Assembly: GCA_002256025.1 (NCBI GenBank)
Contig: NKIB01013989.1
Location: 1-48,879 of the forward strand
DNA from: Asterionella formosa
Lineage: Eukaryota
Direction: 5' to 3'
Length of the DNA: 48,879 bases
Of this stretch, positions 1,501 to 43,718 are shown one piece after another. A program made the translations under genes and the position numbers. Each line of letters begins with the position of its first letter. The first letter of the stretch is position 1. Under the pieces are notes generated by a model, which ran no database searches, was not told the DNA's origin, and saw only the letters and a list, made by a program, of their open reading frames with translations.

Positions 1501-1722
1501 TATTGTTGAAAAAAGGAATCCTTTTGCTGGTCCAGCCAGCATTGATGAGATTGGTATTGATGAAATGAGGAAACCTTTTGCTGGTGGTCCAGTCGACATT
1601 GATGAGATAGTAGGTATTGTTGAAATGAGAAAACCTTTTTCTGGTGGTCCAGTCGAAATTGATGAGATTGTGTTGTTGAAAAGAGGAAATCTTAAGCTTG
1701 TGATCCAGTTGACATTAATGAC
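1501..1722 (+). repeat. Degenerate tandem repeat, ~4 units of ~54-63 bp
   Basis: The unit ATTG(T/A)TGAAA..AGGAAACCTTTTGCTGG(TGG)TCCAGTCGACATTGATGAGAT recurs. One frame reads IVEKRNPFAGPASIDEIGIDEMRKPFAGGPVDIDEIVGIVEMRKPFSGGPVEIDEIV. Confidence 0.8.
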
Positions 1723-2102
1723 TTCATCAACCCGCTCATAGGACTAGATGAAATTGTTCTGTATGAAAGTGGGCTGGGGTTGATTCATATAAAGGCAAGT
1801 TGACATCAAAACAAATATCTGTCAAAATCCTTCAAAACATTTGCATGAGATTTTTAGTGTCAGGGATGAGGAATGGCAAGAAGGACTTTTCTATTTTGGT
1901 TTAGAAACTTTGTTCTTTCACACAATCGAGGAGCGAAATAATACAGAAAAGAAAAAAGCTGAACCCAATTGAGATCTGTATTGTTATGTAGTGATAATGA
2001 TCTGGTTGCTGCAACCAACCATGGATATCGCTGTAGCCTGACAGAAGTAGCAAGAATGCGTCCGCCCACAGGCAGTCATTCCTCCCACCAAACAACCCTG
2101 AT

Positions 2103-2127
2103 CATTCCATTCCATTCCATTCCATTC
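2103..2127. repeat. (CATTC)5 microsatellite
   Basis: CATTCCATTCCATTCCATTCCATTC read directly. Confidence 0.9.
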
Positions 2128-2566
2128 TGGTGAGCAAGGGTGATTGCCAGGCTGCTCCAGCAGCACTGTCGACTCCCCCTAGCTGAATATTGATACATAT
2201 CCTGTGATACAAATTCTGAGTAGAAAGGTAGCAAAGCGGGTTAGGACAAGAAAAGCATTCCTTGACGGCAATATTGACATCATGGTCAGCGACTAGCTAT
2301 ACAAATCAACAAATAAGATCAGCAACAACACATCTTCAAAGAGTAGACATTGATACATACATCAGCCCTTGCGTAGATAAATACAATCGAACCGAAACGA
2401 AAGCACAGAACGACAAACCACGACAGAAGCGATCAAAATGGACCATCGACGCAATCAAATCGCAAATTCGACTAATAGTATCAACATTCCACATTCAGTG
2501 TTTCACTGTTATACTCACCAATCCAATATAACTAGCATAACAAGCAGCAGATGATTTTGGGTGCCA

Positions 2567-6469: not shown

Positions 6470-6790
6470 TAAGGGGAATATGGGAAGCAACGCTGGTAGT
6501 GCAAACCTACAGTTCCACAGTATGCACGTAGAAATGAGTACAGTTTCTCAGTACGAACGAAATAATTCCTATTGTAATAAGAAAGGAAAGACGGAAATAC
6601 TGGTAGGGCAAACCTACAGTCTCACACTTGTAACGATGACCTGGTACCTACCAGCGAGGAGTACCTTGTGGTACCATACAGTATAGCTATTTGTTAGTAT
6701 GTCTGAGTGCAACGTCAAAAGACCCAAGGTAGGGCAAACCTACAGTCTCACAGTGCAACGTCAAAAGACCCAAGGTACAAGGTACCAGGT
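6470..6790 (+). repeat. Degenerate copies of the GGTAG(G/T)GCAAACCTACAGT repeat, same family as the 32494-33015 array
   Basis: The motif occurs near 6493, 6600 and 6728, with a local duplication of GTGCAACGTCAAAAGACCCAAGGTA. Confidence 0.75.
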
Positions 6791-21400: not shown

Positions 21401-24400
21401 AATGAGTTATGTTGGTCCTCTTGCCACTCAAGAACCAATTCAGTTAATCTGAGACTTAATGCCCGGTTCTCAATAGGGCAGCTAGGAGGCAGACCCAGCC
21501 TATTCACAGAATTGATAATGTGCCTAATGAATTGGTTCCGATGGCTGCGAAAGACTTCTGAGTGAGCAGCAATTATTTGCCAAATGTGTGCAACGTGAGG
21601 TACCGAGTTCCCTTCTTCGTACAATATCTTGTTTGTGTACTGAATGGCTTCATTGAACTCAAATTTGTTAAACCGCTCTTGCAACGAAGGAACAAGAATA
21701 GCCACTGACGCTTTGACTATTTCTCGACTCTCGTGCTGGTAAGCCCGAAGTAGGGCAACGTAAATTTGCATAACAATATTTGCTGGGGTTTCAAATGCCG
21801 CAACGAAACGACAAAGTGTTAAATATGCCCAGTTTTTGCAGTTTAAATCGTCGCTCTTCAGCAAGACCCATGAAAACTTGATCACTTCTTTTCTGTGACA
21901 TTCTATCGCGGTAGGGGCATACTCGAGGAGCAACATTGACAGTCTGAGAAACTCAACGCGGAGGCGGTCACCGTGGTTTGCAGGACTTCCATCTTTGAAG
22001 AGTACTTCCCTGATGAATTTCGATATCATCAACGACTCAAACACATCAGCTTTGGTAAGTTCTCTGGTTTCTGTCATGCCCTTGGAGTCCTTTACTCCTC
22101 CAGTTGTCGATGAGATATATACGTCCTCTGCAGTTTCCGTGTTTTGGACTTCGTTTTCAGTCTCAATGATCCCTTCATAGATAAGTGATTTAATCATAGG
22201 GAAAAGGATCAATTGAATACTTAGAACTTTTGTTTCTTCGGGGCCCTCCCCGGCCAAGAGAGCGAAGAAACGCTGTACAACATGTTTTTTCCTTTCATAG
22301 CTAAGCACCTTTGAAACCGTTTCAACAAGAAATTCCTTCACAAAGTTGAAGTCAGTTGTACTTGGTTGCAAAAATATTCGTAAAAGTTCGAATAACACAT
22401 CGACGTCATTTGGGAATGTTGTTGCATAGCTGACAAGAAAAGATGCAAGCTGCTTTGATTCCTGATGAAATCTTGGTGACATGGCTTCTTCGTGTTGCAA
22501 CCTTAGATGTCTTCCTTTCGAGCGCCACAGCCACCGGAATGCTCGAATAACGTCGTTGTGTTCCTTCAAATAGTTCAAGTCCTTGCTTATAAGCGACTCC
22601 GTGAGTCTAAAACCTTGCAACTGGAGTTCAAGTGCTTCGCTTGACATCCTTCTAGGTGAGACGTTTCCAACGTCGAAATCTTTTGGTTGTGCCACGCCTG
22701 CAGCATATCGTTGTTTGCAAGCAGTGAGGTCTTTCTGACCCCGATCAACCGCTGATTGAGCTGTTTTATGGTTACGTTTTGCTTCATCCAAGGCTGCAGA
22801 TGTTGACGTAGTGGACGAAAGTCTTGCCTGAAGTGCTTCTTTCGTTCGAGTTGCCTCTTGCTGGAGAAGAGTCAGACTTTTCTGTTTTACTTCGATATCC
22901 CGTCGGAGTCCTTCATTTTGCTTTCCACCAGTTACCTCTTCACTTACTCCATGCATAACAAGCATATCAGCCGATTTTTTTGGCGTACTTGCAAGCCCAT
23001 TCTGCCCCGGTGAAACCTTCTCTGATCGAATAATAGCTAAAGGTCTCTCAAAACAAACATTCAGTAATGTGACTGAGCATTGGCGTCCGCTGAGATGCTT
23101 CCGCAGAATTGAAGAATCTTCGTGCAGAATGATTTCATGAAATAGTTCGCTATACATAGGGTTTTTCAGTCGGTGGAAGAAGAAGGCAACAGTCCCGCTA
23201 CAGTGCTTGTTGAGATATCGGCTAAGTGGGCCTAAGTAAGGAGAGGTGACGCTCTCGAACTTAAAACGAGGCAAAACTGCTTCCAGCTTTATCGCAGTCT
23301 TTACCAACGGTTCCACGAAATGTGAAGCGTGTGGCAAAAGCGCGAACAAATCCATAATTGCAGCTGCAACTATAGGCTCTTGACCCTCATGCCATATCAT
23401 TTTGGTAATTATTCGATCTGGATCAGTCCACTTAGTGAGGTGTTCAAGGAGCTTCTCACCAAGCGTCGTATTGAACCAGCTAGACAGCAAAGACAAAAGC
23501 TTTGAGAGACCGCGAAGGAGAGGAACTGATAATCTTGTATAATCCCTCAGATTCAGAAGAACAGGACGAATGCAAGTTTGCAGCAGTTCTTTTGGCAGTC
23601 GCGACTGTGATTTTCCTGGTTCTGTTTCTTCCTTCTGCATCACACTAAGCGACAACACATCTAGCAAGGCTTCATGAGCAGTCGTCACTGCTTGTGTTGG
23701 GCTAGATACAAGCGACCGAAAGAGCAAACTAATTACGTGAGGCCGAATATTGCCAATCGGCGTTGAGGATTCTGCGTCAAAGAAGTCATCAGCATGTCTC
23801 CTAATTACCGCTCTGAACATTCGTAGGGCAGTCACTCTCAGTTGTATTCCGTGTGGAAGCTCTTGCGGGAGGATTGCATAAACTCTTTTGTTACCAATGC
23901 GAACAATACATTCCTGCCGAAAAAACAAACCACTTGCTTGGAGTGGCAATATATTTGGCAGAAGTGTCCCCGACGCAGAAGAGTCACCTTGAGTCGATGT
24001 GGCAAATCCATTCTTGTCAACAAACTGAGCGACAATACTAGAATCCGTCATTTCTCCATCAACAATTGATCCCATCTTGAGAAACTCGGACAAGAATCCG
24101 AGTAGCTGCTGGTCTGAAAGCGATATCAAACCAGGGATGCAGTCGATCACAAAAGCCAGTGCTTCGATTACACCGATTTGTTCAGGAAGCGGTAATAAAC
24201 GAAGTGATCGAGTAAAAAGTAGCCGTTTCATGAAAGGCAATTTAGAAACAAAGCAATCCTTGGGATTCGACATGGTCTCTAAGACGTAATTTTTCAAAGC
24301 AAACCGAATTGCAATCCTTTGAAATTTATAGTTCGTTTGTGAGATCTGTTGACATGGCACAATTCAAATAATTGCTCGTGTCTACTTACCTGACTATGTG

Positions 24401-27400
24401 AGATATTGATGATAACTCATTGATCAAGACGTGAAGAACCTCCTCTGATGGACATTGCGTTTGAGACGTTGCTTCATCACCTGTGCGTATATTATTATTG
24501 AGATTTTCGGTCGCACTGGAGCTTGTTGTCTTTTTCTCGTTTGGCAAATGCAGCGGATCACGAATCATCAATGTGGAATCGTCGTCAATATCAGTCCACT
24601 TTGAAGGTTCGCCGTAAATCTTTGAACAAATGTCGGCAAACAATTGAAAGGACTTCACGCCAGCATAAGGAATCTCCTTTGGGCACTTTTTGACTGCCAA
24701 AATGGCGGCATGCATAATTTCTAACTCATAACGCTTCGACCAATTCATGCCGAGCCCACCAATTAGCGCACATAGTCCGTCATACGAGGTTGAGGCTCGA
24801 TTCCAGGTCAATGAAGCGCATAGGTTACAAAACACGCACAGAAGGTTCTCGAAAAATGCATCAGCTCCCGATGAAAGCACATTTGTAGGATCGTTCTTCT
24901 TGAGTTCATTGAACGTTTCGAGTAAGTGTGATATCAGCATTGGCAGCACTTTGTCACAGGACGGCGTCGGGGAGCGCAAATATTCCCCTATTGCCTCGTT
25001 CAAAGAGAAAAGGTCGACTTTTCCTTGAAGGGGACCCGAAAACTCAAAGTAACCGAAAGGAGCACAAGAACTACTTTTCTGTTGAGAGTCTGAAGTCTCT
25101 CCAGGAATCCTCTCCTCGTTCTCGCGATTCTCCGCTGTGATATCGACTGAAGTAGGTCGGTTGGGGATACGGCACCCATTCGAATCGATCCTGTGTATGT
25201 AGGCACCATAAGTCACTGCGATGAAGAGAAAGTGAGAGGAAAGGCCCTTCAAGAGCATACAACAATCCTCTTGGATAGACACGATCGAGCTCCCAATGAT
25301 CAGCCCACGAATGATAAGTTTAAGACTCAAATCCTCTTTTTGTAGTCGTATGGATGGGATGGATAGCGAGCCTCTGGAAACAACAGGAGCGTTGTTGCAT
25401 TCAAAAACTGGTTCAACCTTTTCAATCTTGACTTCTAACGAGTGAGGCGACGATGCACCTGATGATGACCTCAATGGACCAAAATCTAAGACATTAATGA
25501 TTTGGGCCAGTGACGACGAGATAATCGTGAAAGCTGCCCTGGCTTGGGATGACTTCGTTTGCTCCACTACATCGTCACAGTATGCCCTTATATCGATGGT
25601 GTCGGGTTCCAGCTTCGACAGTTGATTGTAATCAGCCCATTTCATTTGGATGAGCTCAGTCTTGAACTCAGCATCGTGTGTTTCTTTGTTATCCTCGTCG
25701 AATCCATCCATCAATGGAGCGGACGCGATCAGAGCAAGTACTTCGACGGCCCTTTCTAGTGGAAGCAGAACTTTGAATGACTTTGGTACCGTTTCTTCGT
25801 CATTTAGAACGGGTTCTTCGTGTTCCCTGCTACTGCTGTGTTCCGTATTGTCCTGCGTGATATTTCGATTTCCCTCCTCCCATACGCAATCAATGGCGAG
25901 GATGTCAAGCTGCCGTCGGAGGTCGGAATATGCAGGCTGCTGCTCAAATGGTTCCCGAAGGAATCGGCGGTTTTTCCCACCAAGTTTTCCCATTAAACGA
26001 AGCGTTAAGAGACCATAAGGGTATGGCGCGGGTTGCAAATGTGTTGATAAGGATGCCATTAAGTCAACAAAGACAACGGATTGATTAGATAGAATTGGAT
26101 AAAGAAATTCAGGGTTCAGATTATCGATCCAAAACTCAAGAGTCCGCAATCCCAAATTCACCAGGTCCCCATTAGCTGATCGAAGGGCAGGGATGATCAT
26201 TTGTAGAAGCAATGACATATGCGGAAGTAGAGACGATAGCCTGGCTGGAATGGTAAGGCAGAGCTCGATAATGGTATGTCGCAAACTTATGTCGTCCGTA
26301 GAGTGGAAGATGCGGTTTAGTCCGTTCAATATAGTTGGAATAAGGGGCAGTAATTCTTTGTAAGATTCTTCAAACTTGCCTCCTGAAATCGAGCGAAAGA
26401 TACATCGAAGCAGAATACAGTATTTGTCAGGCCAATCGCCACAAAATGTTTCCATTGATGTCCGAAGGCACGACGAGACAACATTTCGCAAATGGGGCCT
26501 GAGAGCGACTTCATTCTCAGGGTGTGTTCCAAGCGACTTCAGGATTCGTTCGAATAATTCTAAGATAGCCAATGATCTCCCTTTTCGCTCGGCCTTCACT
26601 TCATCCGTGTCTTCCTTCATGTCGAGGATCGTCTCTCTAGCCCGCTGCTCAGCTTTCTCGACTTCAGCCAAATCCCAATATTTGATTGGTGTTTTCACAA
26701 AAACAAAATCGTGGTGTGGGGCAACACCAAGGTCAGCCAAATACTCCATCAAGTGTGACAGCAATAGATGCGTGTATTCATAGCTCATTTTTGATCCTAA
26801 CAGATGACGTGCAACAACCATGAATTGCTGGTCTTCAACAGTTGCATCAACCAAAACATTGATGCGACGCCCAATGGTTTGCCGAAAATTGAAAGTATCT
26901 AAAACTGTAAAGGAAGCTCCAAAGTACGTCAGGACATCCCTGTACTGCGATTCACTATCCGAAAATACCTTCATACAAGGCAGAGAGTAGAGAATGAATT
27001 TGTCAATCAGGTCAAGCTCCCATGCAGTGATTTTGACTGGTTCTTCCTCCTTGTTAGGGCGGTAGCTGGTGACGCACCAAATAACAGTCTTCAAACCGAC
27101 GACAATTGATCGCACAATGGACTGAATGTCTCGAAGAGAGTCTTCTGAGTTGGTGCTCATGGAGAGCCAAATGTCCGCAGGGGACTTTTGGAGTTCCCTT
27201 TGGGTTTTATCATTATTTCTTGAACCTCCCTGGACTTCCCATATCTCCTTCTTATAATTTTCACTGCTTTCATCTGATTGTCCAGGGTAATGGTACCTGG
27301 ATTTATTTTCGTTCCTATCTTTCCAATTTTTTCTCATATTGCCCTGTTCTTTGACCACCATGGGATGGTTTCGCAATGTTCCCAGTTTATTTACCAACGT

Positions 27401-28669
27401 ATCCAAAATTCGACTCAGAAGATCCTTTCCCACTTGTGGATCAGTTGTTGGCTGAGAGGACTTGGAATGAAAGATGATATCGACCAAATTCAACAACAAA
27501 CGAACAGCTGTAATTTGAATCGTCATTGGAAGCCTGAGGGAGGAATCATGTAAAACTCGGGAAAACATGTAAATGACCCGTGAGAGTTGCTTGACACTTA
27601 ACAACGAACGTACATGATGAACTAAATCTGCCAGTGTCGAGTAACCAAGAGGTTGTAGACTTTCACAAGAAAATCGATTCCCCATTAGAACTCTGTCGTC
27701 CAGAAGCTGATCCATGTACGTAAAGAACCCCTTACGAAACTCAGTAGCTAGAATATGCCGGGTCGCCACCAAGAGCTCTTTTCTAGTGGAAAGGGCTTCG
27801 CGGGGACATGTTTGCATTAATGCAACAACGTTGGAGGCAAGTCGATCTTCATAAACACGCATTTCTTGACCGAAACCGCGAAGGAGATAGGTCAAAAATG
27901 ACAATGTCTTGACTTGGGCGGCGACGAGCTCACGTTGGCGAGAATAGTAGTCGCGTCTATTTTTCTGTGTGGAGGATGGTTGCGGTGGACGGAGTCCTAA
28001 ACAGTCCATCATGAGGGAAATTAAAGACGGAATGTTGGCTTTCAGAAACTTCGGATACAGTTGAAAGAGTAGCATGACAGTAAGGGGACACTCAGTAAGT
28101 ACTCGAAAGCTATACAGCGAAGGAAGATTAGATGGGATGATTGATGTTGATGCTACCGACGACAGGGGGCTCTCATTTTGCTTCGATGGTGGAGCTGCTT
28201 CCGATGCGGATGAGAAGTTCCTTTCGATGCTCTGAGGTAAGGCCTTATACGATGCTTGAACAAAATCTAGATATGCCTGTACTTGCTCTTGCATTGATCG
28301 GAAATGTTTGTGCAAATCAAAAATGATTCGCGATGCCAAAAGTGCGTTTTCTTCAAAATCGCTTTGAAGCACCTCCATGGCAATCTGAAGTAACTGAGGC
28401 GCATGCTTCCGCAAGATTTCATTGTTGGGAAGTCTTGATAATATTTCGAGCACACATTTGCGCAGAGGATCATTAGGATTACATTTCGCTTGAAGCAGAG
28501 TTTTGAAGGCTGGAAGACCTTCACGGAGGAGGGCTGGATATTCCGTGGAATGGACTATTTCAATTCGCTCGCTGAGATCTCTTGCTGCCTTGAGAGCCTG
28601 TTCAGGATCTGGACCTAGAAGATCCTCCTTGACGGTCTCCCAGTTTATCTTGTTGGGCATATTTGCCAT
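15472..28669 (-). CDS. TRRAP: Transformation/transcription domain-associated protein (TRRAP/Tra1), PIKK-family pseudokinase scaffold of SAGA/NuA4; exons 28669-24390 and 24316-15472, ~4374 aa
   Basis: Tra1 N-terminal motifs SFRVLTECPL, AAQVKTLSFL, RKELLVATRHIL, IELCLTIPARLSSLLP and LGLRTLEFWIDNLNPEFL. FAT region motifs WRHRLPN and WIPQLL. The kinase-like C-terminus has VPFRLTRNL but lacks DRH/DFG (reads ERT..PDF); the FATC end is YQPWL. A 73-nt phase-2 intron GTAAGT...TTTCAAAG (24389-24317) joins the two ORFs in frame. Confidence 0.96.
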
Positions 28670-29094
28670 TGTTGGGGTTTGCCGCTAACAGACAAGAACG
28701 AGGCTAACTGTGCATGTACCGTGGGCGATTATCCTCATCCAACCACGGGGATTGAAGTCAATTGAAAAATACACAAAGTTATGAAAGAAAAAAATTGATT
28801 AAACGTCTTTTCAGGTCCAAACTACGCCCGCTCCTCTTACCGGTACCTTGGCTTTTTCGGTCGAGCGTAAGATAGCATCCGGAGCGAGTAGCAGGTACCA
28901 GGTACCAAGTACCGGGTACTATCGTATGTAGGGCGGGTGGGTTTGCAAAACGACAGATAGTAGCCGATTTTGGGTTTCGAAAATGTGTAAATAGTGCCTC
29001 AAATTTGGGGACTCCCCAAATTACGAACGCAATCAATCATGTCATAAATGATTGGGGAGCGAATCCCCAACTGATTTTGAAATACCACTGGTAC

Positions 29095-29189
29095 CTGGAA
29101 GCGCACATTTTATGCACACCTTTTCAGTTTCGACGCACTCCCACTTGATGGTCTCATGCCTGCTGGACTAGATAGACTGGCTTTTCATT
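29095..29189 (+). repeat. Left terminal inverted repeat of the 12.5-kb element
   Basis: ~75% identical to the reverse complement of 41491-41585. Confidence 0.8.
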
Positions 29190-29738
29190 CCAAACTCTCT
29201 TAAGTAAGTGGGCGCGTGACAAAATTATTATACCACAAATATTCCTTCGTAATTTGATGTATAATATCGTTGTTGTGCTCTGATATTCTTATAATTTTAG
29301 ATTACCTATCTGACATAAAATAAAAATTTGACGATAATTTTTACCAGTTAAATTTTCATAGCAATGCATCCTCCAATTTGTTATGCCTCCTCTTCTTATT
29401 CATTTTAAATATAATAATATTATTGATTTTGACTTGCATAATCTTGCCATCGTTGGTCACTGACAATGTTGCCTTTAATCGGATCAAATATGAATACAGC
29501 TTGCTTGTGCCGCTGGCAGATTGATTATGAAATGAAATCGAAATCGAAATCTTTGCCTTGTGTGATGAGAGAGTTGTCATGACAAAACAGCTTTTTCCGA
29601 GCTCCCCAAAGTGAATGAGCTAGTCATAGGCATAATTTTATTGTCCACATTTACATTTAGAAACGGTACTATTTTGACTGTTTCCCAACGCGTTGCAATC
29701 GAAATATGAAGGAGGGTTGTTCGATACGCTGCAAACGA

Positions 29739-29883
29739 TACTCCTGGGAATCCGTATATAGCCCATCCATATCCCCAGCTCACCACGCCGACAAGAATAT
29801 CGCTTGAAAAATCATTTCCGGAAAAAATCAGCGGCCCATCGCCCAGAGTCGCCTTGGCAGCTGTCTTTACCTTGACCAGTGGC
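29739..29883 (-). pseudogene. Trypsin-like serine protease (S1) fragment covering the catalytic Ser region
   Basis: The minus strand reads ATGQGKDSCQGDSG-(frameshift)-GPLIFSGNDFSSDILVGVVSWGYGWAIYGFPGV, matching the canonical GKDSCQGDSGGPL...GVVSWGYGCA...PGVY signature. Confidence 0.9.
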
Positions 29884-30489
29884 TGATTGATTATTCAAAT
29901 ACTTTGATTGATTATTCAAATATTTTGACATGTTGATGATAATTTTGATATATCAACGGCAGAGTATATATTAGTTACCAAATCTAATCGGTTAACCAAA
30001 ATTGTTGATAGATTGATCAAATGTTTTGTTATTTTGATGATATTTTTGATTTATCAATGACCGTGTCGGTGTGGTCAATCAAATTTGTTTGCAGATTTTT
30101 TTCTTACACACGTCAGGTTACGCATAGATAGAAGTCATATATATATTAGTTATCAAATTTAATATCCTAACCAAAATGCTTTGATATATTGATACGTTGT
30201 TTGATTGATAAATAGCTGTTGTTCTTTGATCAATTATTGTTTTAGCGAAGGTTATGACTTTACACAGATCACCTTACGTGTATGTAAACCTTGTACCCGA
30301 CGATGCTATCAGAATGAATTCTGTGCAACAACAGTGCGTTCCTTGTTGCCATTCCGATTTGAATGCTCTACCGGTACGGTACATGCTTTGATCCAATTCT
30401 TGTACCGGTAGTATTCCTCATTATCTCTCCATTCGCATATCAGATACGAATTTCTTACAAGCCATGTGCGTTTGTTGAACAATCCCTTA

Positions 30490-30910
30490 CGAGCTACCTT
30501 CTTGCGGGGATGACGATGATCTCAGTCTTATAACGAATGATATGGTCTCGATATTGATGGGGAATTATGCTGGCGAAGTTTGATTTGTTTGTTACTCGAA
30601 ATCAAAAGCTTTGGTCAATTTATACGACAGAATTGGAGAACGATGCATTGAAGGCCATACCCAATTCCAATTCCAACCAAAATCAAGAAGATAATACCTT
30701 TTGATCATAATTCGCCCATTGCGAACATCGATCCGTATTTTGAATCTGTTCTTCAAGATCAGATGTGGATCAAAGTGAAGATGGACCAGATGGCGGCGCA
30801 GTATGTTGCTCATGGCCTTAATCATGGGTCTTCCATTCTCATTGACTAGTTATTGGCGAGCACATTTGTATGCTGCAGAATTAGAGCCGCAACATCACGA
30901 ATCAGGAAGT
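30490..30910 (+). pseudogene. Possible Ulp1/C48-like protease remnant
   Basis: Frameshifted pieces GHTQFQFQPKSR/KIIPFDHNS, DQSEDGPDGGAVCC and LMALIMGLPFSLTSYWRAHLYAAEL follow the H...D...Q-x-DG-x-DCG...R order of Ulp1 domains. The similarity is weak. Confidence 0.3.
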
Positions 30911-32493
30911 AGCTTCATTTCATTCAGGAAATAGTAGCATCACATGAACCTTTAATAGCACGGGGTTCGAAATAACAATTGTAACTTTGCTTAATAACAT
31001 TGTACTTTCCCATTGTTTTCAGAAATCTCTTTATCGGCAACATCAGAGGCAATATATAGGACAGCCTAGCCCCATTGCCACACATATAGTTTCCACAAAG
31101 TGACCGCTTTATATAAATAGCTTATATATACGTAGTGTAGCTTGTCCTACACATATGTTCTCGCCACTCCGAAGAAGTGTAAAATATTTATGAGGGTACC
31201 AGAACCATGATTATTCAATCAATAGCTGATTCCAATTTTGTACATCAACAATGGTTGTCGAAATGAGTCCAATGATGTTGAAAAACTTCTCTGTTATTGG
31301 GGCGTTTCAAATGATCCCTGTGGTATTTTTACTAATATTGTTGTTGCTGGTATTGATACAGAAGAAAAGAGGAACAAGCTTCTGTGCACCACTATGGCTA
31401 CATTTGAGAAGCATCGCCAAAATTGGGAACTTTTTTTCCTGACAAGCCGATGGAATTAGTCATACCTGTCATTCCAAATAAAGATCACCGACGTTGTGTA
31501 TTCTCCATTTATGCATTGACACAGGCGAGTGAAAACGAAATAGTTGATGCCAGTTCATCTTCTCCCAATACCATTCCAAGAAGTAAAGATCATGTTGCTT
31601 GTATGCCCATGGTAGATCTTGTTTCTACTTCCTCATAGCGTCTAATGATTGAGTCTATCAAATCTGATAGACTTGATATAAAATCGCCCCCTGCCTTCCA
31701 AAGCAAAAGCAAAATGTAAATTGAAATTGAAGGCAATTCCAGCAGACATGGTTGCCAATCCGGAAGAAGCAGTCCATGACTTGTCACCAAAGAGTTCCGA
31801 AATTGTAGGAGTGATTGGGAAAGTAAATAGAAAAAAACAGGTCAAGGAGGAAAGTGATTTGTCCCATTTATCTAGTAAGGAGTTGGAAATATTGAAACAG
31901 GACATAGTCGCCAGTCTGTATGTAGTTCATGGGTGCATTTGGTGGCATATTGTTGTCTTTCTGATTTAGTCTAAAATCTCGAAGAAAGTGAGTTTTCCAT
32001 AAAATCATCGCTGGTCCTATATGATTCCGAAATTTCCTTGAAGTTTCAAATGATGTTTTGTTAAACAAGCCAGATTCTAGGACCACATAGAATTTGTTGA
32101 GAACAAAATCCAGGACACTGTCATATAGTCTCTTCTCCTTGCCTTTGTCATCATGATCAAAGTATCTAACCAGTAAGAGTCGTTCCTTACTCTTCCGTTG
32201 TCTCTTGAACAGACATGAAATACGCCATAGCAACACGTTTTTCCTGATTGAAAAATCTGCGATCGGTATCCCCTTCACAACCAAGATCGTTCCATTCCTT
32301 GTAGCACTCGGAACATTTGCCATTCCAGATAACAAGTGATATATTGCACTGTCAATTTGTCAAGAAAAACGTGACTGTAACAGAACAAGAAAGCAGAAAG
32401 GGATAATGGTCTGTCAACTATAGGATTAGACAGTGGGCGAGTGCTGGATCGGAAGCGATGCAGCACCGACATACTCAGTAATAGACATTGGAT

Positions 32494-33015
32494 TGGTAGC
32501 GCAAAGCTACAGTTTCATAGTACCAGCTTAGTAATCATAGGTACAGTTTCACTGTAGCCACGTCATGTTCCGACCGGGTATTGAGACAAGGGGAAGAAGG
32601 GAATGCTGGTAGAGCTAATCTACAGTTTGTTCACAGTACCTGGTACCAGCGTAGTAATAGGTACAGTTTCACAGTAGGCTCGTCATGTTCCGACCAGGTA
32701 TTGAGACAAGGGGAAGAAGGGAATGCTGGTAGAGCAAATCTACAGTTTCACAGTACCAGCGTAGTAATATGTACAGTTTCACTGTAGCCACGTCATGTTC
32801 CGACCGGGTATTGAGACAAGGGGAAGAAGGGAATGCTGGTAGGGCAAACCTACAGTTTCACAGTACTAGCGTAGTAATACGTACATTTTCACTGTAGCCA
32901 CGTCATGTTCCGACCGGGTATTGAGACAAGGGGAAGAAGGGAATGCTGGTAGGGCAAACCTACAGTTTCACAGTACCAAGGTAGTAATAGGTACAGTTTC
33001 ACAGTACCGGGTATT
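32494..33015 (+). repeat. Tandem array of ~110-120-bp units (~4.7 copies)
   Basis: TTGAGACAAGGGGAAGAAGGGAATGCTGGTAG at 32581, 32701, 32811 and 32921. TGGTAGNGC(A/T)AA at 32494, 32607, 32727, 32837 and 32947. Confidence 0.95.
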
Positions 33016-33647
33016 CGAAATTCCTGTTAATTCTTGTATATTTTATCTAATCATTCATACTGGTAGGGTATTAAATGTTCCTTCGAAAAAGTTACTAGAC
33101 ATACAGACACTTTTTGAAGAAGAGGAAATGTTGAGATATTGTTGAAAAATTCATGCCGGTGATGCATTCTATTCCACATAACAAACTGATAAGGGAATGG
33201 TGATAGAGAGCCTTCCACCGGTATCAAACCAACCGGTTATATGATTGTTTTGCTTCTCAACTGTGGCTACCAAGGGGCTTATGATCGGTACCGTGTGAGA
33301 CCGGAAGCAAACTATAAAATTGTATCGCTGTTCGTGTGCACTGCTACCACTCAAAGATTCTACACTTCCTCAGGACGAATGATAAAAATCAACCTAATGA
33401 CGAGGTAAGAAACCGCACTTAATATCTTTGTGCACGGCCAAGGCTGCAGAGGGTTTGTAGTGTCTGTGTCCATTTATTTGGATTTCGACATTAAGAACAT
33501 CTTTCCATTCCATGATATATGCAGATGTGAGGAGGGTTAACAACGCTACCTGTCACCCATCAATCAACAGTGAGAGCATAGGTAAGTTACTACACTCTCC
33601 TTTGATGCTCGTTTTGTCGATTGGAACGTGAAGTGCGTTATATAGAT

Positions 33648-34020
33648 TGTTTATGTCATCAGTTCGTGGCACATGTGTGGCCGCTGGAGATGCTTTAATC
33701 GTTGCAACACTTTTGCTAACATTGATATTATCTCCTCAAAATCATACAGGAACCTTGGAGAATGTGGCTTGCTACCATTCTTAATGGAAGCAACAATCAA
33801 CCATGAGAGCACAGGTACATTATATGCACATTGCCTGCTCATACAGAAATTGGAGTGATGGATTGTTCATGTGATCGTTTCGTGGCACATATCTACGTTT
33901 AGATGCCTTGCTTACTTGATGCAACAGTTTTGCTAACATTGTTGCTATTATCTCTTACAGGAAAGTCGTACAAGAACATTGGAGAATGTGACTTGTTGCC
34001 ATTCGCAATGGTAGAGGTTC
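33648..34020 (+). repeat. Diverged tandem duplication (~215-bp period)
   Basis: TTCGTGGCACAT...TGCAACA.TTTTGCTAACATTG...TATTATCTC...TTGGAGAATGTG.CTTG...CCATTC occurs at ~33663-33790 and ~33879-34010. Confidence 0.75.
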
Positions 34021-34099
34021 GAATAAAGCATCATCAATTTCAGGTAAATGATGTATTGGTATACATCAGACTTACTATGGATGTATTGTTACTAAAAGG

Positions 34100-35260
34100 A
34101 TGTCACTTAAACCTATTTTTGCATTTCCCAAAAAGGCTAGAAAACAACCAACCATATCTGTGAGTTGCAACTCCGTAGGCATATCGGATGTGAATGCAGA
34201 TTGGTTTGCTAACCGATGCATCTCCCGATTATTTCAACTAAATCCGCAGTTAGGCAAAGAAGCAGAGAGTGATCCTGAACTTTCAAATTACATATGGAAT
34301 GGATGTGATCCACAACTTCCGGATAATTATAGAATGGAACGTACAAACAAGCACATTTAGAATATATCAACTCTACATTCGGAGGTATTTGAATTAATAA
34401 AAATGCGAGAACAACAAAATAAATTCAACAATCATTTAAAATCGATTTTAAGTAAGTCAATTGTGATGTTTTTTTCTACAGTCAAAACATTTATTTCTTC
34501 TACTTCAATGTTCTAACCATTTTCTTGTCTTAGTTGGTGTTACAGAAGATTACTTCAACAGGCTTGGTCCGTCGGAGTTTATTGGTTGGGCATGCAAGTT
34601 GTATGCGTTTGCTCAAGCAAGTTTCATTGATAGAGCAAGCAATTCCTATCACCTACTATGCATTGATGTTCTTGCTCGAGTTCATTTTCTAGGTAAGGTC
34701 AGTTGTGGCGACCCCTATCTTATAGGAGAGAAAGTTGAAGAAATTAAATTCCTTCTAAGTGATCGAGCTAAATGTGTATTACAATCAAGGTTTGTTGGTT
34801 CGGTTATTAATGCTTCGACAGAAGCATTTTTTTTCTTGTATTAAAAGGGAAATTCCGATTACAACCTGGATGGATTAATTATAATCTTTCCTCTTATCTT
34901 CCTCAAGACCAATTACCTCGTTACTGGCAGTGGGCTGTTGAAATCGGTGGAAAACCACTTTTCAAGAAAAGTACAAGAGAGCAAAGTTCAGTGTCGTCAG
35001 GAGGTCTCACTGATCAATGGACTGATGTCTTATTGGAATATAATCAACAATTGTTTGGCGATATTGCACAGGATAATCGATCTTTGCAAGCAATGAACCG
35101 TAGCGGATTGGACAGTAAAGCACCTACAAATCATTTTCCAAACACATATTTTTAAATCCCAGAAGAGCAATTAAAGAAATATGGTGAAGATCAACTTCCA
35201 GAAGATGATGTTGCTGGAGTAGCATCAATTTACGACATTGTGGAAATCGTCAGATCATGA
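34100..35260 (+). pseudogene. Intron-containing gene of unknown function inside the transposon, convergent with the transposase
   Basis: The frame from 34100 (one TAG at 34358) runs to a phase-1 intron GTAAGT...TTCTAAC...TTTTCTTGTCTTAG (34452-34533). Splicing joins it in frame to IGVTEDYFNRLGPSEFIGWACKLYAFAQ. After a poly-T frameshift near 34830 it reads LVLKGKFRLQPGWINY...PRYWQWAVEIGGKPLF..., with another internal TAA near 35153, to TGA at 35260. Confidence 0.7.
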
Positions 35261-35287
35261 CTGTTAATATTAATATAAATCATTGAT

Positions 35288-38199
35288 TTAATATATATTT
35301 ACAGCTAGAAACTGGCGTGTAGGTAGGGAAACATAGTAATTATCTTTTTCTAATTGCTCCAATACCTCAGTGGTCTTCACTGGTTTCCTAGATTGAATAG
35401 AACCTTCTTGCGGTTTTAAGGCAGCCACAACAAACGCATCAGACAGAATGTTGTTAAACTCAACCACACTCAGTTCAGTTGTATCGTTGCATATCATCTC
35501 TCTCTGAGGACCAACCAGTGTCTTTGTAACAGACATGAACCTATTTATTCTTTCTTTCAGAGGTATCACACAAATTTCAGTATATTGGGGAATGAATAAA
35601 GTGTCGTTGATGGAAATGCCTAACCATAATAACAATGTGAAGTCTTTTTCAAGGTCGGTGTTCTCAGGACCCAACATTCCTCCCATTGAGAAAATTATTA
35701 GCACACATAAACCAGGGATTTCTTGGCCAGACATCTTGGATAATGCGGTCAATCCTGATCGATACGATAGTATTGGTATATTACAATCACTTTGCCTCTC
35801 CAGGTGGCTATTAATGTATCTAGCATTTTTTTCAAATTGAAGTTTTGCAAACACATTTCCTGTTCTAGAACATGTGTGGTTGTAACTTTTGACAGTGCTG
35901 GTACTTTTGAAAATTGGTTCGTATGTCAGTACTTGTTATGGTGGCATTCGTTCTTTTGGCCCGTTTTCTCGAACTTGGTTGGTCAGGATAAGTCAGGTCT
36001 ACTGGAGGTAAACCTGTTTCGTTCGCCTCAGAGTACCTGTTTGGTACTTCTTGACAAATTCTTTTCTTAAAAAATGATTCCCAATCTTTAGGAATAGTTA
36101 GATAATTATATAACGAATCCAAAATGTACTTCAATAGGCAAAGTGACAGTTGATGGAGCACCTCGAAGGGTGTTGCTCCAAATATTCCTTCGGGATCACC
36201 GCCAAAGTAATGCGTCATCAATGCCGGGATGATTGGATTATGAGAGATGACACGGCACCACTCATTTCGTGTTGCGAACTTACTATTAGTCTGAGTCACA
36301 CCAAAACATGTTGGTATAGATGGTAATTTGACATCTGGATAGGTTTCTTTATCCAAATGTTTGTTTTGCAATCAAATTTTAAAGTACATTACTACAGCTA
36401 GAAATTGCGCTCGTGCCAGGGTTGACACTTGACACTGCTTCATCATCATACTGGTTTCTTACGATCCCTTGGACGTCTTCCATGCCCACGAGCCCATACC
36501 GGTGCAAGACGGACGCTCCCCGCGACGTTTGGCATAGTCCTGGATTGATCGTTATTCCAAGCATTGAAAGCAAGATCCACAGTTTCCACCCACAAGCGCT
36601 TCTGCTGTAAAGTATGTCGTTTAATTCTCACCTCCATTGAAGCAGGAAAAATGATTTATCGATTTCTCTAACCCTTTGTGGATCAAATCTGTATCTAACC
36701 TTTATTTGTGAATCCACCTCTTCCATCAGTTTCCTTAATTGTTCCTGCTCTGTCTTTCCATATAGATCCTCATTGCGTGTAATCCATCTCTTGATGGCCA
36801 TATCCCATAAACTTGAAATAACCCTAGCGCTGGATATGTTTCTTTATCCAAATATTGCTTCAGAAATTTATATGCATCGGCAACTTCTCGCAGTTCACAT
36901 TCTATATCCGGATTGTCAGCATCTTCTGTACATACGGAGCAATCTCGGCAAAAATGTTGTCGATATAATCCATTATCTCCATGGAAACCGCAAATTTTAT
37001 TATGTTCCTCTATATCTCCAACTACCATTCCAATTTGGAAATAAACTTTTGTATACCCCAGACCAAGCACCCAATTATCATAGAATTTGTTTGGATCTTG
37101 AAAAGGTTCTATTAAAAATGCGGTTCCAACATTAAGTTTAAGATTGTTAGTAAGAATGGATGTTCTGAGTTCTTCATTTGTTTATCAATAGGTGAACCGT
37201 CGCTAAATACAGTCAATGCCATTAACAAATGCCCAGGCTTTAAAACTCCGTTTTCCGTAGCTTCAGAATTGTTGAATGCATTTTCAAACCAAGTGGCAGA
37301 AGTAACTTCGTCATATATTTGTTTTCCACAGTTTGAAAGCTTTCTTTTTTGATGATATACAAAATGTTCCATGATTTCAGGATCACGTAACAACGATGCC
37401 ATGAGTTGTCCTGGTTCAAAGTAATGTAATGTCTGTGGAATAGAGAGTATTCCATTATTCTCAAGAAGAATTTCTTTTTTCAACAGTTCACCACCTGTTA
37501 ACCTTGGCGGAAATGAATCATCCATCTTTTTCAAAGTTTGATAGGAAGGAGCTTGATTCTTTCCATGACAATATTTCATTCTCCGTGCTTTGAATAACCA
37601 TTTCATAAGATGATCGAAGTACATTGGTGGTAAATAGTTCTCGTTCAGGAATAATATGAGTTCTAAATCGATTGGATGCATATTTAGCAAATTGTTTTGG
37701 GAAGTTGAAATTGACCAGGTAGAGGAATTTTCATAGATTTCTTGGGAATGAACCCACTTCGATCTTTGTACTCAGGAAAATGCATAGTATCATTATCTAA
37801 CCCATTAATTTCTGTCAATTATATTTCTTCATCACCTTGCCCTGATATATTTGAAGTCACTGAGATACTTTCATCATAGAATTGAAATAACAAATCCTGG
37901 TCATCTAATTGTGAAGCAGATTCTTCCGTATGCAAAGTATCAGAAATAAGAACGTTGGGAAATGAGGAAGAGACACCTGACTTTCCTGTTTCATTTAAGT
38001 CGCTTGATAGTTTACCGCCGCAATACATAGTTTCATTGAAAATTCCATAAATGCGGTGTTCTTCCAAGCAGTGATGGCACAAACCAAAATCGTAAAATTG
38101 TCGATTGTTGCAGTTTCGATTGTGAAAGTCAGAGGAAGATTTGTTCTTCCGAAATTTATAGTTGCATACCGAGCACCAGTGAAAGGTTCGTAATGACAT
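35288..38199 (-). pseudogene. Plavaka-type (CMC/CACTA-related) DDE transposase, disrupted
   Basis: Colinear fragments: N-terminal CxxC/H zinc-finger-like segment; SLLRDPE...IYDEVTSATWF...LTVFSDGSPIDKQMKNSEHPFLLTILNL; MVVGDIEEHNKICG...CRDC; GIFGATPFEVLHQLSLCLLKY; RQSDCNIPILSYRSGLTALSKMSGQE. These follow the conserved order of Plavaka transposase motifs. The gene is broken by stops, frameshifts and an insertion. Confidence 0.82.
36359..36829 (-). mobile_element. 5'-truncated non-LTR (LINE) retrotransposon insertion, 471 bp, with 24-bp TSD
   Basis: Flanked by CTGGATA(G/T)GTTTCTTTATCCAAAT at 36335-36358 and 36830-36853 (1 mismatch). The insert reads ARVISSLWDMAIKRWITRNEDLYGK...QQKRLWVETVDLAF, the LW-x6-W-x2-RN motif of LINE ORF2 C-termini, then a stop and a short tail ending CAAAACAAAC. 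Confidence 0.82.
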
Positions 38200-38397
38200 T
38201 GTTTGGGCAAAAAGTCAAAATAGAGAGGAGGGATCGATTTGTGGGCAGCGGTATGGATAAGAGGATCAACGAAATGTCCAAGTATCGCTTTTTCGTCATA
38301 AAATACCGAATACCGGTATATACGTGTATATTCAATAATGCGTCATGCAGTACATCGTAGTACAAAGCACTGAAATCTTATTATGCAACATTCATCT

Positions 38398-40531
38398 TTA
38401 AAATTTTAGCTTATCTCTAATCTGCAATGCGTTGACAAACGCATTGACAAAGAGAGCAAATTTGTTTTCATTGATAGTAACGTCATTTGAGAGTCCAGAT
38501 GATACTGACTCCCAATTGAAAGGGGAAATTTCAGCTGTGGCATCACTATGGTGAAGGTAGGCGTCAACTTCCTTGTCATTCAAGAAGTTGCAAGGGTTTT
38601 TTCCAAATTTTTCATTCAACCTTTTCAAATCCATAAAACTATTCTGCACAATTTTCTTTATGAAGAAGAAAAACTACAGCTTTTTTCCATTTGCACCTTT
38701 TCCTTCTTGGTAAGAGCCTTCAATGATTTTTCAGACCAAACGGTTCCAAGGCCAAAAAAATTCTCCTTCTTCTTTACATGATGCACTTTCGAAGGATTAC
38801 CCACATGATCTGATGATACTACCATGCCGTCCAACTGCTTCCAATTGCAGTTCTCTAGACGAAATTGAGCCGGACATCCAACAAATTTGGTTTCGCCATT
38901 TCTTTCCAATTGAAGTAGACTTTATAAAAATTTCACAACATTGAATGGTCTACAGGACCATCCAGTATCACCTTCTGGCTGAAATAATAGTGAGTCATGT
39001 GTAGTTGCCATAAAAACTCGCAATGGAGCTTTTGTAGAATGATAGAAACTCTCACTCTGAATGTCCAAATTGTGGCTTATACTAAGCATGGCTCGGAAGT
39101 TAGGCATCCCATGATGCCATTTCTTTCTCCCTCTTACATCCAGGGATGATACAATATTTACGGGCAAGGTGATCGAGATGTTCTTGGACTGTGGCTGCTT
39201 CTGCTGGATCACGGATTTGACAATTTCATTCCTTAAGTCCAAATATGTAATGAAAAACAATGTCTATTACCACAAGATGATCTCTTGCAGTACACTATAA
39301 TCACATAGGTACACTCAATATACAACGGGTGACAATTCCCACTATAAGTGTCTCCACCACAATCCATTTGTGGATTGTCATCAACATCCACAGCAATAAC
39401 AATCACATTGGTTGGATGGAGTTCATGTGTTATAAATCGAATGAGATTCTGGATTGTTTGAAAATCCCAATATGCAAGAGATTTAAACTCCTCAATTTTT
39501 TTGAAATGTAACAAGTTATAAGTCTTTGCAGCATAAGTACAGACTTCTTGGGGAGTTCAAGAATAAAGTTCTTCCCATTTCTCGAATTGTGGCTTCGTTT
39601 TGGGAATGTTCACGTGCATGAAGGTTCAAATGGGAGACATGAGTTGACATAATTGACATGCATTTTCCTCTATATAGCTATGAACTGTCCTCGGGATTCT
39701 CCATGATGGTATTATTGACAGAATCTTTTTCAGCTTCATATGATTCAATAAAAATACCATTTCGATCATCCCGGTCATTGGGCATAACGAATTGGGAAAG
39801 GTCCAACATAGTCTGGCTGATAATGGTATTTTTGTTCTTCAACAACTTGATCTCTTCCACAATATCCTGAACAGAAGTTGATTTTCAAAAACAGGTTGAT
39901 GTTCAGTAGAACTAACAAAGATTCCTTTATTGGCATCGGGATGTTCCTCTTCATGACCATTCCTTGGCTAATTATTATTGTCTAGAATCTTTTCGTTACT
40001 TGATATTGTTGTCTTCGTTGGAAGAACACCAGAATCTATCAAACCAGCACCTGAGTCAGCATCATCTCCATTCATCAGATAATCTGGTGGGGTAGGGTTG
40101 TTGACATTTTCTGCATTAGAAACTTGGCCTTGGCCTCTAAATGTAGAGGTACCCTTGAAGATGTCTCGTCACGGAACTTATCGTGCATTATCACAAGAGA
40201 TCGACTGGCTTCTTCTCGATTTGGTGAACGATCAATAAGAATAGCCCGCTGCTTTTCATTGGAAAAAATTGGTTCAAATGTTTTGGTTTCGCCGTTGAAG
40301 ATGCCCTCTCTGATAAATGCATTGGGTCAATTCTGGAATTAACATATGAACTCTTTTTTCTAGAGAATTTTAAACCTTCTCGAAATCGTCAGATTTGGAA
40401 GGAAACAGACATGTGCTCTCAACCGATTCAATGAGTCGTTTCAATTTCTTCCTCGATGTTTAGACGTCTTCTAGTGTAAACCCAAATAGACTATCCTCTT
40501 TGTCATGGCAAATGTTGTTGTTGTGTTCCAT
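38398..40531 (-). pseudogene. Large disrupted ORF with probable Ulp1/C48-like cysteine protease domain
   Basis: A chain of same-strand ORF fragments. YWDFQTIQNLIRFITHELH...YVIIVYC...RHCFFITYLDL...LFQPEGDTGWSCRPF resembles the H...D...Q-x(n)-G-x-S-C-G-P pattern. The 5' limit is uncertain. Confidence 0.5.
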
Positions 40532-41490
40532 ATCAACTTTGATTGGTATTCATATGAAAAGCGATGCAGTATGGTTCCAAGAAATGATAATAAATGCAAT
40601 GAAACGGAGTTCGATTACTATCAATGATGGGAAGGCAACAGCAGCCTCCTCAGCAGCAGTATAATTGTATTTGCTTGTACTGATGATATCACGGTACATC
40701 ATGCATGCTATTCTATATTGGTATTTACTGCTATTTACATTCATCAAATTATATATTTTGACATAATGATAGTTGATGATAACATCTTATTACTGTATAA
40801 TTGTTTAGTAATAAATATTAAAAATATTAGCAATAACCTTTTAAAATATTTGAATTAATTTGCTCTTATAAATGTGATCAAACTATCATAGATTTAGTTA
40901 CAAGTGATTGTGAGTATGTGATAATGAATTATAAGTTCACTGTTGTAATCATACGATAATATGATATTAACGGTACGATCTCTTTTTCTTTTGAGTGTAC
41001 AGAACCATACGTCACCTTGTTTGTACGAGACCGTGTTATAGCCATGATAGTAGTATATGTGATATTCATGTGATATGTGTGATATTGCCAAAATAGTGGT
41101 ACCCCGGTAGGCTGTTGCATCAGGCATGATAGTGACTGTGACCATGTATATAGATATAACGTTATATATGTTCATACTATTGGCAACAATGCTATCAGTA
41201 GCTAGTGGTTGTGTCTGTTCATGTATATACTTCATAGGTAAAGGGGGTCATTCAGAAAATTTATTTGTATCCACAAGTTCTAGTCGTTGTCAGCAAATTC
41301 TAGTCATTGTCAGCAAGTTCTAAACGTAGAAAGAGATGATTCCTATTTGTATTCCGAAGCTAGGAGAAGACGGTTTGCTGAGCAGTTTCATCAGTCAGCA
41401 AATCCGAGTCGTGTTCAGAGACTGATTCTGCAAATCGTCATCGGTAAATAAGAGTAACGTTTTCCTAAATTACTTTAGGATTATTATTTC

Positions 41491-41585
41491 CATCGAAAGC
41501 TGTCCTATCTCGTCTGGCAGACATGAGATAAATCATTGGGAGTGGTTCAAAACTGGAAAGGTGCGCATAAAATTTGCGCTACCAG
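41491..41585 (-). repeat. Right terminal inverted repeat of the 12.5-kb element
   Basis: Its reverse complement matches 29095-29189. Confidence 0.8.
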
Positions 41586-43718
41586 ACCTTCCTGGTACCA
41601 GCCAGGTACTGTAGTTAAAAGCTACCGGTACTTCGACTCAATTACCGACTCGTTCGACTGTCTTTTCCTGCAAAAATTTCTTTCGCTTCTCCTTGATAGT
41701 TTTTTTATTTGCATTTTTCTGTTCCAATTAGTCTTTAGACGCGTAGTTGGGATTTTTGATTTTTGTTCTATGTAGTATGATCCCTTTCCCCTCCGGGTCC
41801 CCATAGCTGCAGTAAAGTTTGCACTTTAGACGTGGGTGGGATTTAGAGAGGGTGAATTTTATCCATTGACTGTAAATTTTTCACAACTTGGAGTTCAACA
41901 ATGTTGCTTTGCTGAAAGTTGATTCGAAGAATTGTGAGATTTCTTCCTTGAAACCTTTGTTGTTTGCCGTTCCTCTGGTTTCAATTCGCGCTTCGTGCAC
42001 ATCCCCAGGTTTCCCTCGTCTATATTACTAAGTACCGGTATTTGGCGCTTCAGAAGGGCGGTCTACCTGTCCCGGTATTATCTGCGTGCTCCTTACTGCG
42101 CAACAGGGAAAACTATAACAATCATATACCGGTACCAGTAAAAATCTGCATTGACCCACTGATTTCTCCCATTCGTTTGATTAGTTCGACTAAACCTTAA
42201 ATCGCATCTCTCAAAAATATGTTTTGTTGGATTCATGTCAGGAGGCGTCGGTATGTTAGAGTATCATGTTACTTGTTAATTGAACTGCTGGTTCAGAAGA
42301 TATTTATATTCATCTGGTTACAAAATTCAGTCTCAGTGGGTTAATGCAGTATATGAAATTTTTACCAGACCTGAAATTAATTTTGTATTCGTTTGTGAAC
42401 ACGGGTTATCCTGTTTGGTTCAAAGCGAAAAGACATAAAATGCATGATGGTTCATACTTTCTTAAGGTTGTGCCCCGCCGGCATAACCCTAGTTGCTTTG
42501 GTGTAAACATTGCTAGGGTTGTCAAAACATCATGGAACAAGGAGTTTGTTTCTATGTTATCCCATGATTTTAGTGTCGATTTGAATATTTGAATAGAATA
42601 GAAATCAGCGCCATATTGATAGAGTTTCATTTAAAAAATTATATTTAAGCGTTTGTATTATATCTACGTTGCTGAATGTAGATACAATTTTACTACATGC
42701 CAAAACACATATATAAATCAGGAGTATGCCAATATGTATGTGCATGGGTCTTGTTCAAAGAAAAGAAATGATGTAATTTATACGTTCATATTGAATCTTC
42801 GTTGCTGTATGTAGTTTCAATACTACTCTACGCCCAAAGGCAAACATACAATCAGTGCCGGAGTACCGGTATAGTAGTACCTGGTACATAATGAAGACGA
42901 TGGATGATGGAAGGCAAGATGAAACTGCCGGTAGCACTGATTTTACATACCGGTATGCAATACATTTAATACCTGTGGTTCAAGTGTGGCTGGTGTGATT
43001 TTACAAGACCAGGATACTTCAGCAAATCTGGAGCAGGTGAGTAAATTCAATTCAACCAATCTGAATATATGTAGTGATGCAGGAACTTAACCTGGAGTCT
43101 TTTCGGACAGAGAATTATTCAGCAAAACATACCTACACAAGACTCTAAGTCTACGAGAACATTGTTGAATGTACAAATTCCGATTCCAATATTTTGGCGA
43201 CTGCTGAAAAAGCCAATCGGGTCGACTTTTTGGAGGAGGATTACTCTACATCTACGGGGTTTCATGAAGATTAAAATAGATAGCCATGTATCCTATAATG
43301 TCAGGAGTTAACTTCTGTAGAGAAGTTACAGCTATCCCTCGTAGATTCTTTAAACGCTTTGCAGGTATCATTGATTGGAAGGGTTTTGACTATAAATAAA
43401 TAATATATGCATGTAAAAAACTACGCACTTCAATTTGATCAGCCGAGAAGAAGCTTTGATATATCAACAATATGTAGAATTTACGGAATTCTCCACGGCG
43501 ACGGTCGTGAATTTGTAATATTTGTACAAGACGGTTTGTACTATAAGGAAAACAGAGCTACTACTACCGGTATAACATTCTCATGCACTGGTGGACTTCT
43601 TTACGTATTCGTCCACTCGTACATACGTGTATATCATTGTAATGATTTCCAATCGATCTCCATCGACCCGTATCTACTTCCATTCATTATAGTAACAATC
43701 ATTGCCTATCTCCCCGAG

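Follow-up and report, generated by a model that had tools for sequence, protein, structure and literature searches.

Ends, genes and decay of a probable Plavaka-lineage transposon in a contig of Asterionella formosa

Contig NKIB01013989.1 of the Asterionella formosa assembly GCA_002256025.1, analysed here over positions 1 to 48,879 of its forward strand (the window), contains two diverged inverted repeats about 12.5 kb apart, with the remnants of genes between them. The question raised by this locus is whether the repeats and the genes they enclose belong to one mobile element, as the original prediction, made from the letters alone, had proposed when it described positions 29,095–41,585 as the complete outline of a multi-gene Plavaka-type transposon. 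Our analysis makes it probable that this 12.5-kb stretch is a real copy of a cut-and-paste transposon of the Plavaka lineage, dead and broken, which carries two further genes in addition to its transposase. The boundaries, the 2-bp duplication and the native order of the genes we infer from this single copy.

Within positions 28000–43000, the longest inverted repeat has its arms at 29095–29184 and 41496–41585; the arms are 90 nt long, 77% complementary and separated by 12311 nt, in good agreement with the diverged repeats of about 95 bp that had been predicted. Compared with each other by BLASTN, the two arms match over 81 nt with 79% identity (expect value, E, of 2e-15), and a direct alignment comprises about 87 aligned positions. 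A 27-nt core of the repeat has only two sites in the 48.9-kb window, namely the arms themselves, with 0.00 expected. Read inward, the left arm begins CTGGAAGCGCACATTTTATGC... and the right arm CTGGTAGCGCAAATTTTATGC...; the similarity between the arms ends sharply at CTGG/CCAG and is lost immediately outside. The termini are CTGG..CCAG and not CACTA, which the original prediction had also stated. The dinucleotide AC flanks both arms, at 29093–29094 and at 41586–41587, again as predicted, and weakly suggests a putative 2-bp target-site duplication, a length consistent with the duplications reported for Plavaka in the available part of the published survey (PMC12730594). The G+C content inside the element is 0.35–0.43, compared with 0.43–0.49 in the host genes to its left. 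The ends and the regions adjoining them are:

29093..29094, no strand: AC, left copy of the putative 2-bp target-site duplication (from reading the flank; one copy)
29095..29184, plus strand: left terminal inverted repeat, starting CTGGAAGCGCACA (inverted-repeat search, BLASTN, unique core)
29185..29870, no strand: left subterminal region, without coding signal (no Pfam match on open reading frame pieces)
40171..41495, no strand: right subterminal region (no Pfam family on open reading frame pieces)
41496..41585, minus strand: right terminal inverted repeat, starting CTGGTAGCGCAAA when read inward (inverted-repeat search, BLASTN, unique core)
41586..41587, no strand: AC, right copy of the putative 2-bp target-site duplication (from reading the flank)

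An inner inverted pair at 29893–29946 and 40821–40855, about 0.8 kb inside each end (E of 0.007), is AT-rich and was not counted as a subterminal repeat.

Between the ends, protein alignment located three decayed genes, the number that had been predicted: a transposase gene and two others, here called X and U. The transposase gene and the insertion that interrupts it are:

35291..38214, minus strand: decayed Plavaka-type DDE (Asp-Asp-Glu) transposase gene (protein alignments, Pfam matches of relatives, catalytic columns)
36335..36856, minus strand: insertion into the transposase gene, 497 bp, made up of 473 bp and one copy of a 24-bp direct duplication (23 of 24 positions identical) (sequence comparison)

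A 219-amino-acid piece of this gene (37112–37771, minus strand) was compared with 1.8 billion representative proteins and gave 73 matches at E<=0.001, most of them short fragments. Nine of these matches were scanned for the Plavaka family of Pfam (PF18759, cut-off 26.3 bits): two scored above the cut-off (P0053 with 60.8 bits and P0006 with 30.4 bits), three scored below it, and in four the family was absent. A protein-profile scan of metagenome contigs returned four short relatives, L001, L002 and L004 among them, with the arm in none of the four; the viral collection contained no relative. One of these, L002, has an uninterrupted frame of 947 amino acids with a Plavaka match of 51.3 bits, and a search with this frame retrieved P0074 (1219 amino acids), P0075 (1023 amino acids) and P0076 (614 amino acids), all of which contain PF18759. 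Among the full-length relatives, Plavaka is present in five out of six, at 50.6–60.8 bits (P0075 59.3, P0074 50.6, P0053 60.8), and Transposase_21 in none of the six at E<=0.05; of the two Pfam families that the original prediction had named, the first is thus found in the relatives and the second is not.

The minus strand of the window is colinear with the full-length relatives from 37773 to 35312, at 40–59% identity. With P0075 as the query, tblastn yielded colinear matches of 51–59% identity (E of 4e-49 and 3e-43), and pieces of the gene are colinear at 41–59% identity with full-length proteins in which Pfam recognizes PF18759 and no other family, in line with the predicted Plavaka lineage. 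The window retains the D, D, E and CxxC columns, as FSDGS, VVGDIE, PFEVLH (containing the Glu) and CRDC (the CxxC motif), aligned with the conserved columns of seven relatives. From the PF18759 matches of the relatives, the colinearity and the retention of these columns, we read the gene as that of a Plavaka-type DDE transposase, now dead. A protein-atlas look-up of the transposase tail led to Plavaka/DUF6830 clusters, taken as a lead only.

Compared with its relatives, the gene is short of about 46–49 residues at 37124 and of about 290 near 35470, after which the last 50 residues or so are kept up to the end at 35291; there are also several frame changes. The 497-bp insertion is absent from both L001 and L002. 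Its 473-bp insert has an A-rich stretch at the end and a frame of 71 amino acids (36631–36843); it looks like a 5'-truncated retroelement insertion, and was matched to no family. A relative of the transposase in L004 (85–333) is a Plavaka remnant in which residues near 382 are joined straight to the last 50 or so, and the two transposase deletions of the window begin and end at nearly the same residues as this joint. The remnant in L004 is followed by two long frames (476–2235), the motifs of which presumably recall a tyrosine recombinase element.

On the opposite strand, converging on the transposase gene, lies the first of the two further genes:

34533..35259, plus strand: gene X, a decayed accessory gene, convergent with the transposase gene (tblastn of P0082, P0091 and the L001 open reading frame)

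Protein P0082 matches X at 79–85% identity in three overlapping pieces that are in different frames. As the pieces overlap, the frame changes represent frameshifts and not introns, and the relative of X in L001 is a single open frame of 276 amino acids (L001 13–843); the description of X as a spliced gene in the original prediction is therefore not supported, while its remark that the gene ends close to the transposase stop is accurate, the distance in the window being within about 30 nt. The homologues of X comprise 17 proteins, just one of which has a Pfam family, and the fold predicted for X has a mean pLDDT (predicted local distance difference test) of 32.5. In L001, X is located about 290 nt upstream of the transposase gene (1131–3110) and on the same strand; this transposase gene, too, has frameshifts and an internal deletion. 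Judging by these sequences, X appears to accompany this transposase lineage in two independent places. The expectation that the internal gene order would recur in related copies does not hold for L001, the sole related contig with two of the genes.

One relative of X, P0089, is encoded on a 5.5-kb contig; its residues 1–78 match the tail of X at 86%, and its residues 86–194 form a 2OG-FeII_Oxy_3 domain (51.6 bits). This is a single sequence, in which the two parts may truly be fused; alternatively, the predicted gene may run on from a piece of transposon into an adjacent gene. No trace of the oxygenase part is present in the window.

The second further gene is on the strand of the transposase gene:

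38661..40170, minus strand: gene U, decayed, just upstream of the transposase gene (tblastn of P0130, P0094 and P0132, 62–89% identity, frames -1, -3, -1 and -2)

A search with the piece at 38925–39263 (minus strand) retrieved P0094, a protein of 443 amino acids that is 89% identical over the matched part. The cluster of P0094 includes forms of up to 527 amino acids, and the open frames among the relatives are 443–527 amino acids long. This gene had been predicted to be Ulp1-like, a label that is not supported: the 14 open reading frame pieces of the region gave no C48 match in Pfam at E<=5, and the intact relative P0094 gave nothing at E<=1. A profile of U found only two weak, unrelated matches among the PDB sequences, an atlas look-up of a U piece returned no usable match, and the predicted fold has a mean pLDDT of 27.1. 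By eye, U has a His, an Asp 17 residues on, and then a Gln and a Cys, which would be the order found in Ulp1-type (C48) proteases. The wider proposal of a cargo-carrying family stands insofar as two further genes appear to travel with the transposase lineage; the chromatin or DNA-modification domain that such cargo would bring to mind was found in neither.

Contigs of four public runs, which are lake, freshwater or algae metagenomes, were aligned to positions 28500–42200 at 80% likeness. The window may itself derive from two of these runs, X1 and X5; X14 is from another study. The left junction is spanned by a 15.2-kb contig of X1 and by a 612-nt contig of X14, each reaching from the flank to 29131 with a single mismatch; the right junction is spanned by contigs of X1 (41427–42193) and X5 (41544–42129). 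The presence of both junctions in contigs of separate public DNA runs indicates that the element is not an assembly artefact of the window. At position 29144, the arm is overlapped by 33–76 contigs per DNA run, and at 29144 and 29146 the letter of the right arm is read by 54, 76 and 33 contigs of X1, X5 and X14, respectively. Since most contigs carry the right-arm state at these two positions, the arm must be present in multiple copies, and the left arm of the window holds private changes. Behind 29207, 40 contigs of X5 diverge from the window copy, and at the right end about the last 200–310 nt are common to other copies, as seen from X5 contigs with loose ends at 41274–41387.

Some joints in these contigs skip internal parts of the element, for example from 38072 to 40336, and resemble deletion derivatives; the joint expected of an empty site, 29094 to 41586, is not among the joints listed (15 of 285). 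Contigs of a polyadenylated (polyA) RNA run match X, the transposase gene and U in part, at roughly 85–94% likeness, and other copies in the same organism are probably transcribed. An opposite-strand joint between 37142 and 38363, seen in X1, X14 and the RNA run (RNA contig depth 2154), suggests a rearranged paralogue with a strong presence in RNA. Exact-pattern scans for the arm gave no match in metagenome contigs or in viral contigs.

The remaining part of the element is the larger share of its left half:

29871..34000, no strand, limits approximate: high-copy repeat block (contig depth, no Pfam match)

None of the 57 open reading frame pieces of at least 45 amino acids in 29095–34500 has a Pfam match at E<=0.01. 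Summed contig depth in X5, a rough measure, amounts to 0.49–0.95 million per bin in the block, compared with 134 thousand at the arm (29144); within the transposase gene it is 11–101 thousand, and single contigs of the flank have about 0.8 thousand. A block several times deeper than the arms is hardly likely to be confined to the space between them, and the DNA from about 29.9 to 34.0 kb is probably nested or unrelated high-copy repeat DNA and not cargo. In this respect the outline was less complete than originally proposed, as some 4 kb of the left half resembles unrelated high-copy repeat DNA. The block contains a 110-bp tandem array at 32494–33006, the units of which carry CTGGTAG[ACGT]GCAAA and, after it, a short palindrome; nine matches to this motif occur in the window, compared with 0.17 expected.

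It is conceivable, albeit unlikely, that the block from 29.9 to 34.0 kb and its 110-bp array are instead integral to the family, either as a binding array or as a region common to many non-autonomous copies. The array units, CTGGTAG[ACG]GCAAA, agree with 12 of the 13 nt with which the right arm begins, and red-algal Plavaka elements have, in the available part of their description, tandem arrays of inverted repeats beside an accessory gene (10.1101/2025.02.11.637652). However, the block is about 5–7 times deeper than the arm in X5, which is hard to explain if it always lies between paired arms, and the array motif is found outside the element as well, at 6462–6760. The likeness to the tip of the right arm is marginal: it concerns 13 nt only, 2–6 of 500 shuffles reached it, and the left arm does not show it.

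A more radical alternative would separate the ends from the genes. Each arm would then be the end of a short non-autonomous element of its own, or of a member of another family, the two being inverted relative to each other by chance; the Plavaka genes would be an unrelated older fragment, and the 12.5-kb unit would never have moved as one. The arm is indeed commoner in X5 than most of the interior genes (134 thousand at 29144, compared with 11–45 thousand at several transposase positions), many contigs share just the terminal 113 nt on the left or 200–310 nt on the right, and the scans of metagenome contigs and viral contigs gave no second full copy. An excess of ends over transposase genes is, however, usual for DNA transposon families with deletion derivatives. 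Furthermore, the 48.9 kb contain no copies of the arm other than these two, which point towards each other with the only Plavaka genes between them, and the same dinucleotide is found on both outer sides, 2 bp being a duplication length given for Plavaka in the available part of the survey (PMC12730594). We regard this separation of ends and genes as distinctly improbable. That there is no transposon at all, the inverted repeat being due to chance or to a local inverted duplication, would suit the finding of one full copy only and is scarcely credible for arms that match with an E of 2e-15, are multi-copy in three DNA runs and enclose a DDE transposase gene.

Several observations nevertheless weigh against the reading that we prefer, a single Plavaka-lineage transposon bounded by the two arms. 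An AC match on both sides is expected by chance in about 1 of 16 cases, and a single copy was examined. The sequence CTGGTAC occurs near both junctions, in flanks rich in GGTACC-like motifs, and a longer, offset duplication in place of the 2-bp AC is conceivable. The termini match neither published fungal Plavaka type. Plavaka is found in none of 20 open reading frame pieces of the window itself at E<=0.1, a negative of little weight with the domain split over three frames and interrupted; membership of the lineage therefore rests on the relatives. Gene X is downstream of and convergent with the transposase gene in the window, but upstream and on the same strand in L001, so either the order is not conserved or one of the copies would have to be rearranged. 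The assignment of 29.9–34.0 kb to nested repeats is deduced from rough contig depth. Finally, the link between arms and transposase is likewise a deduction, as no second copy with its ends was obtained.

For a single transposon of this kind, a mechanism may be proposed by analogy with the Plavaka family, from which we infer movement by cut and paste. In a working copy, the transposase would bind the terminal inverted repeats of about 90 bp and excise the element; reinsertion by a 2-bp staggered cut would then lead to a 2-bp duplication, here AC. The family would carry at least two further genes, U and X. The window copy would be immobile by itself, with all three of its genes broken, and its left half is probably swollen by about 4 kb of unrelated repeat DNA, which would make the element proper nearer to 8 kb.

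Elements of the En/Spm (CACTA) type, and of the CACTA/Mirage/Chapaev (CMC) group in general, move by cut and paste, make short duplications and have more than one gene per element. The element described here would share these properties, together with a related DDE transposase with a CxxC motif. It differs from En/Spm (CACTA) in the absence of Transposase_21 from all six relatives, in termini that are not CACTA and in a putative duplication of 2 bp rather than 3 bp.

Closer counterparts are found among the Plavaka elements themselves, as presented in the available portions of three texts. In the survey of fungal elements (Kojima 2025, PMC12730594), Plavaka is grouped with EnSpm, Mirage, Chapaev and Transib, with C(2)C and H(3-4)H motifs in common. 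PlavakaA families have 2-bp duplications and termini TGT..ACA, PlavakaB families have 2- or 3-bp duplications and termini CATCA..TGATG, and some fungal members carry a TET/JBP gene (PMC12730594). With these, the element described here has in common the transposase family, the putative 2-bp duplication and, in the case of some fungal members, the presence of an extra gene. In contrast, its ends are CTGG..CCAG, neither TGT..ACA nor CATCA..TGATG, so that it fits neither fungal group as described in that portion; genes U and X are without TET/JBP or any other Pfam domain, and the host is a freshwater photosynthetic eukaryote. In the red alga Bostrychia moritziana, Plavaka families of 17.4–19.1 kb are described; they have accessory genes PAG1-3 and inverted repeats in tandem arrays, and the majority of the copies are degenerate (10.1101/2025.02.11.637652). 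Both the Bostrychia elements, in this description, and the present one are large, multi-gene and algal, with a tandem array inside the element, and mostly degenerate copies in Bostrychia parallel the broken copy here; unlike in Bostrychia, no DNA methylase or SET domain was found, and the array is probably not element-specific. A green-algal genome preprint also names EnSpm-Plavaka elements in its available part (PMC12633428).

As far as these portions extend, multi-gene Plavaka elements with 2-bp duplications are already known from fungi and algae. A literature search directed at diatoms together with Plavaka, CACTA/EnSpm or DNA transposons gave, among the papers listed, no structural description of such an element; in one diatom genome paper, EnSpm is mentioned as a repeat class and nothing more. 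What may be new are the termini CTGG..CCAG, the group of hosts and the pair of accessory genes. The element is a new family within a known lineage. If its boundaries hold, a Plavaka family from hosts other than fungi and red or green algae would for the first time be outlined structurally, with its ends, the length of its duplication and its set of genes. Such an outline would aid the repeat annotation of algal genomes of this kind, and it adds two accessory genes to the question of why the Plavaka lineage so often carries extra genes. A single dead copy does not change how these elements are thought to work.

A bolder proposition, which we hold to be very doubtful, is that stramenopiles or other freshwater algae have a Plavaka lineage of their own, with its own termini, 90-bp repeats, two lineage-specific accessory genes and an array of the terminus motif, in which the fusion of X to a 2-oxoglutarate (2OG)-Fe(II) oxygenase in P0089 would parallel PAG3 and TET/JBP. 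An oxygenase-bearing PAG3 with arrays is described for red algae in the available part of that text (10.1101/2025.02.11.637652). If the proposition were true, Plavaka elements would repeatedly have recruited 2OG oxygenases that act on their own DNA or on chromatin.

The neighbouring host genes encode Tra1, a TPR-Aha1 protein and a DUF1997 protein; by themselves they mark the host as a eukaryote and no more. The element is located in an intergenic region; the Tra1 frame (15472–28684, minus strand) starts about 410 bp away, with the element on its upstream side. Scans of the window for Rfam families and tRNAs found nothing. A 14.4-kb contig of the polyA RNA run stops at 29092, two bases short of the element. 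The motifs GGTACC and ACCGGTA are abundant in the flanks, at 28840–28925, 41590–41640, 42030–42140 and 42860–42890, and the insertion may have occurred in a motif-rich intergenic tract. Just outside the right end, positions 41592–41601 form a perfect palindrome, CTGGTACCAG.

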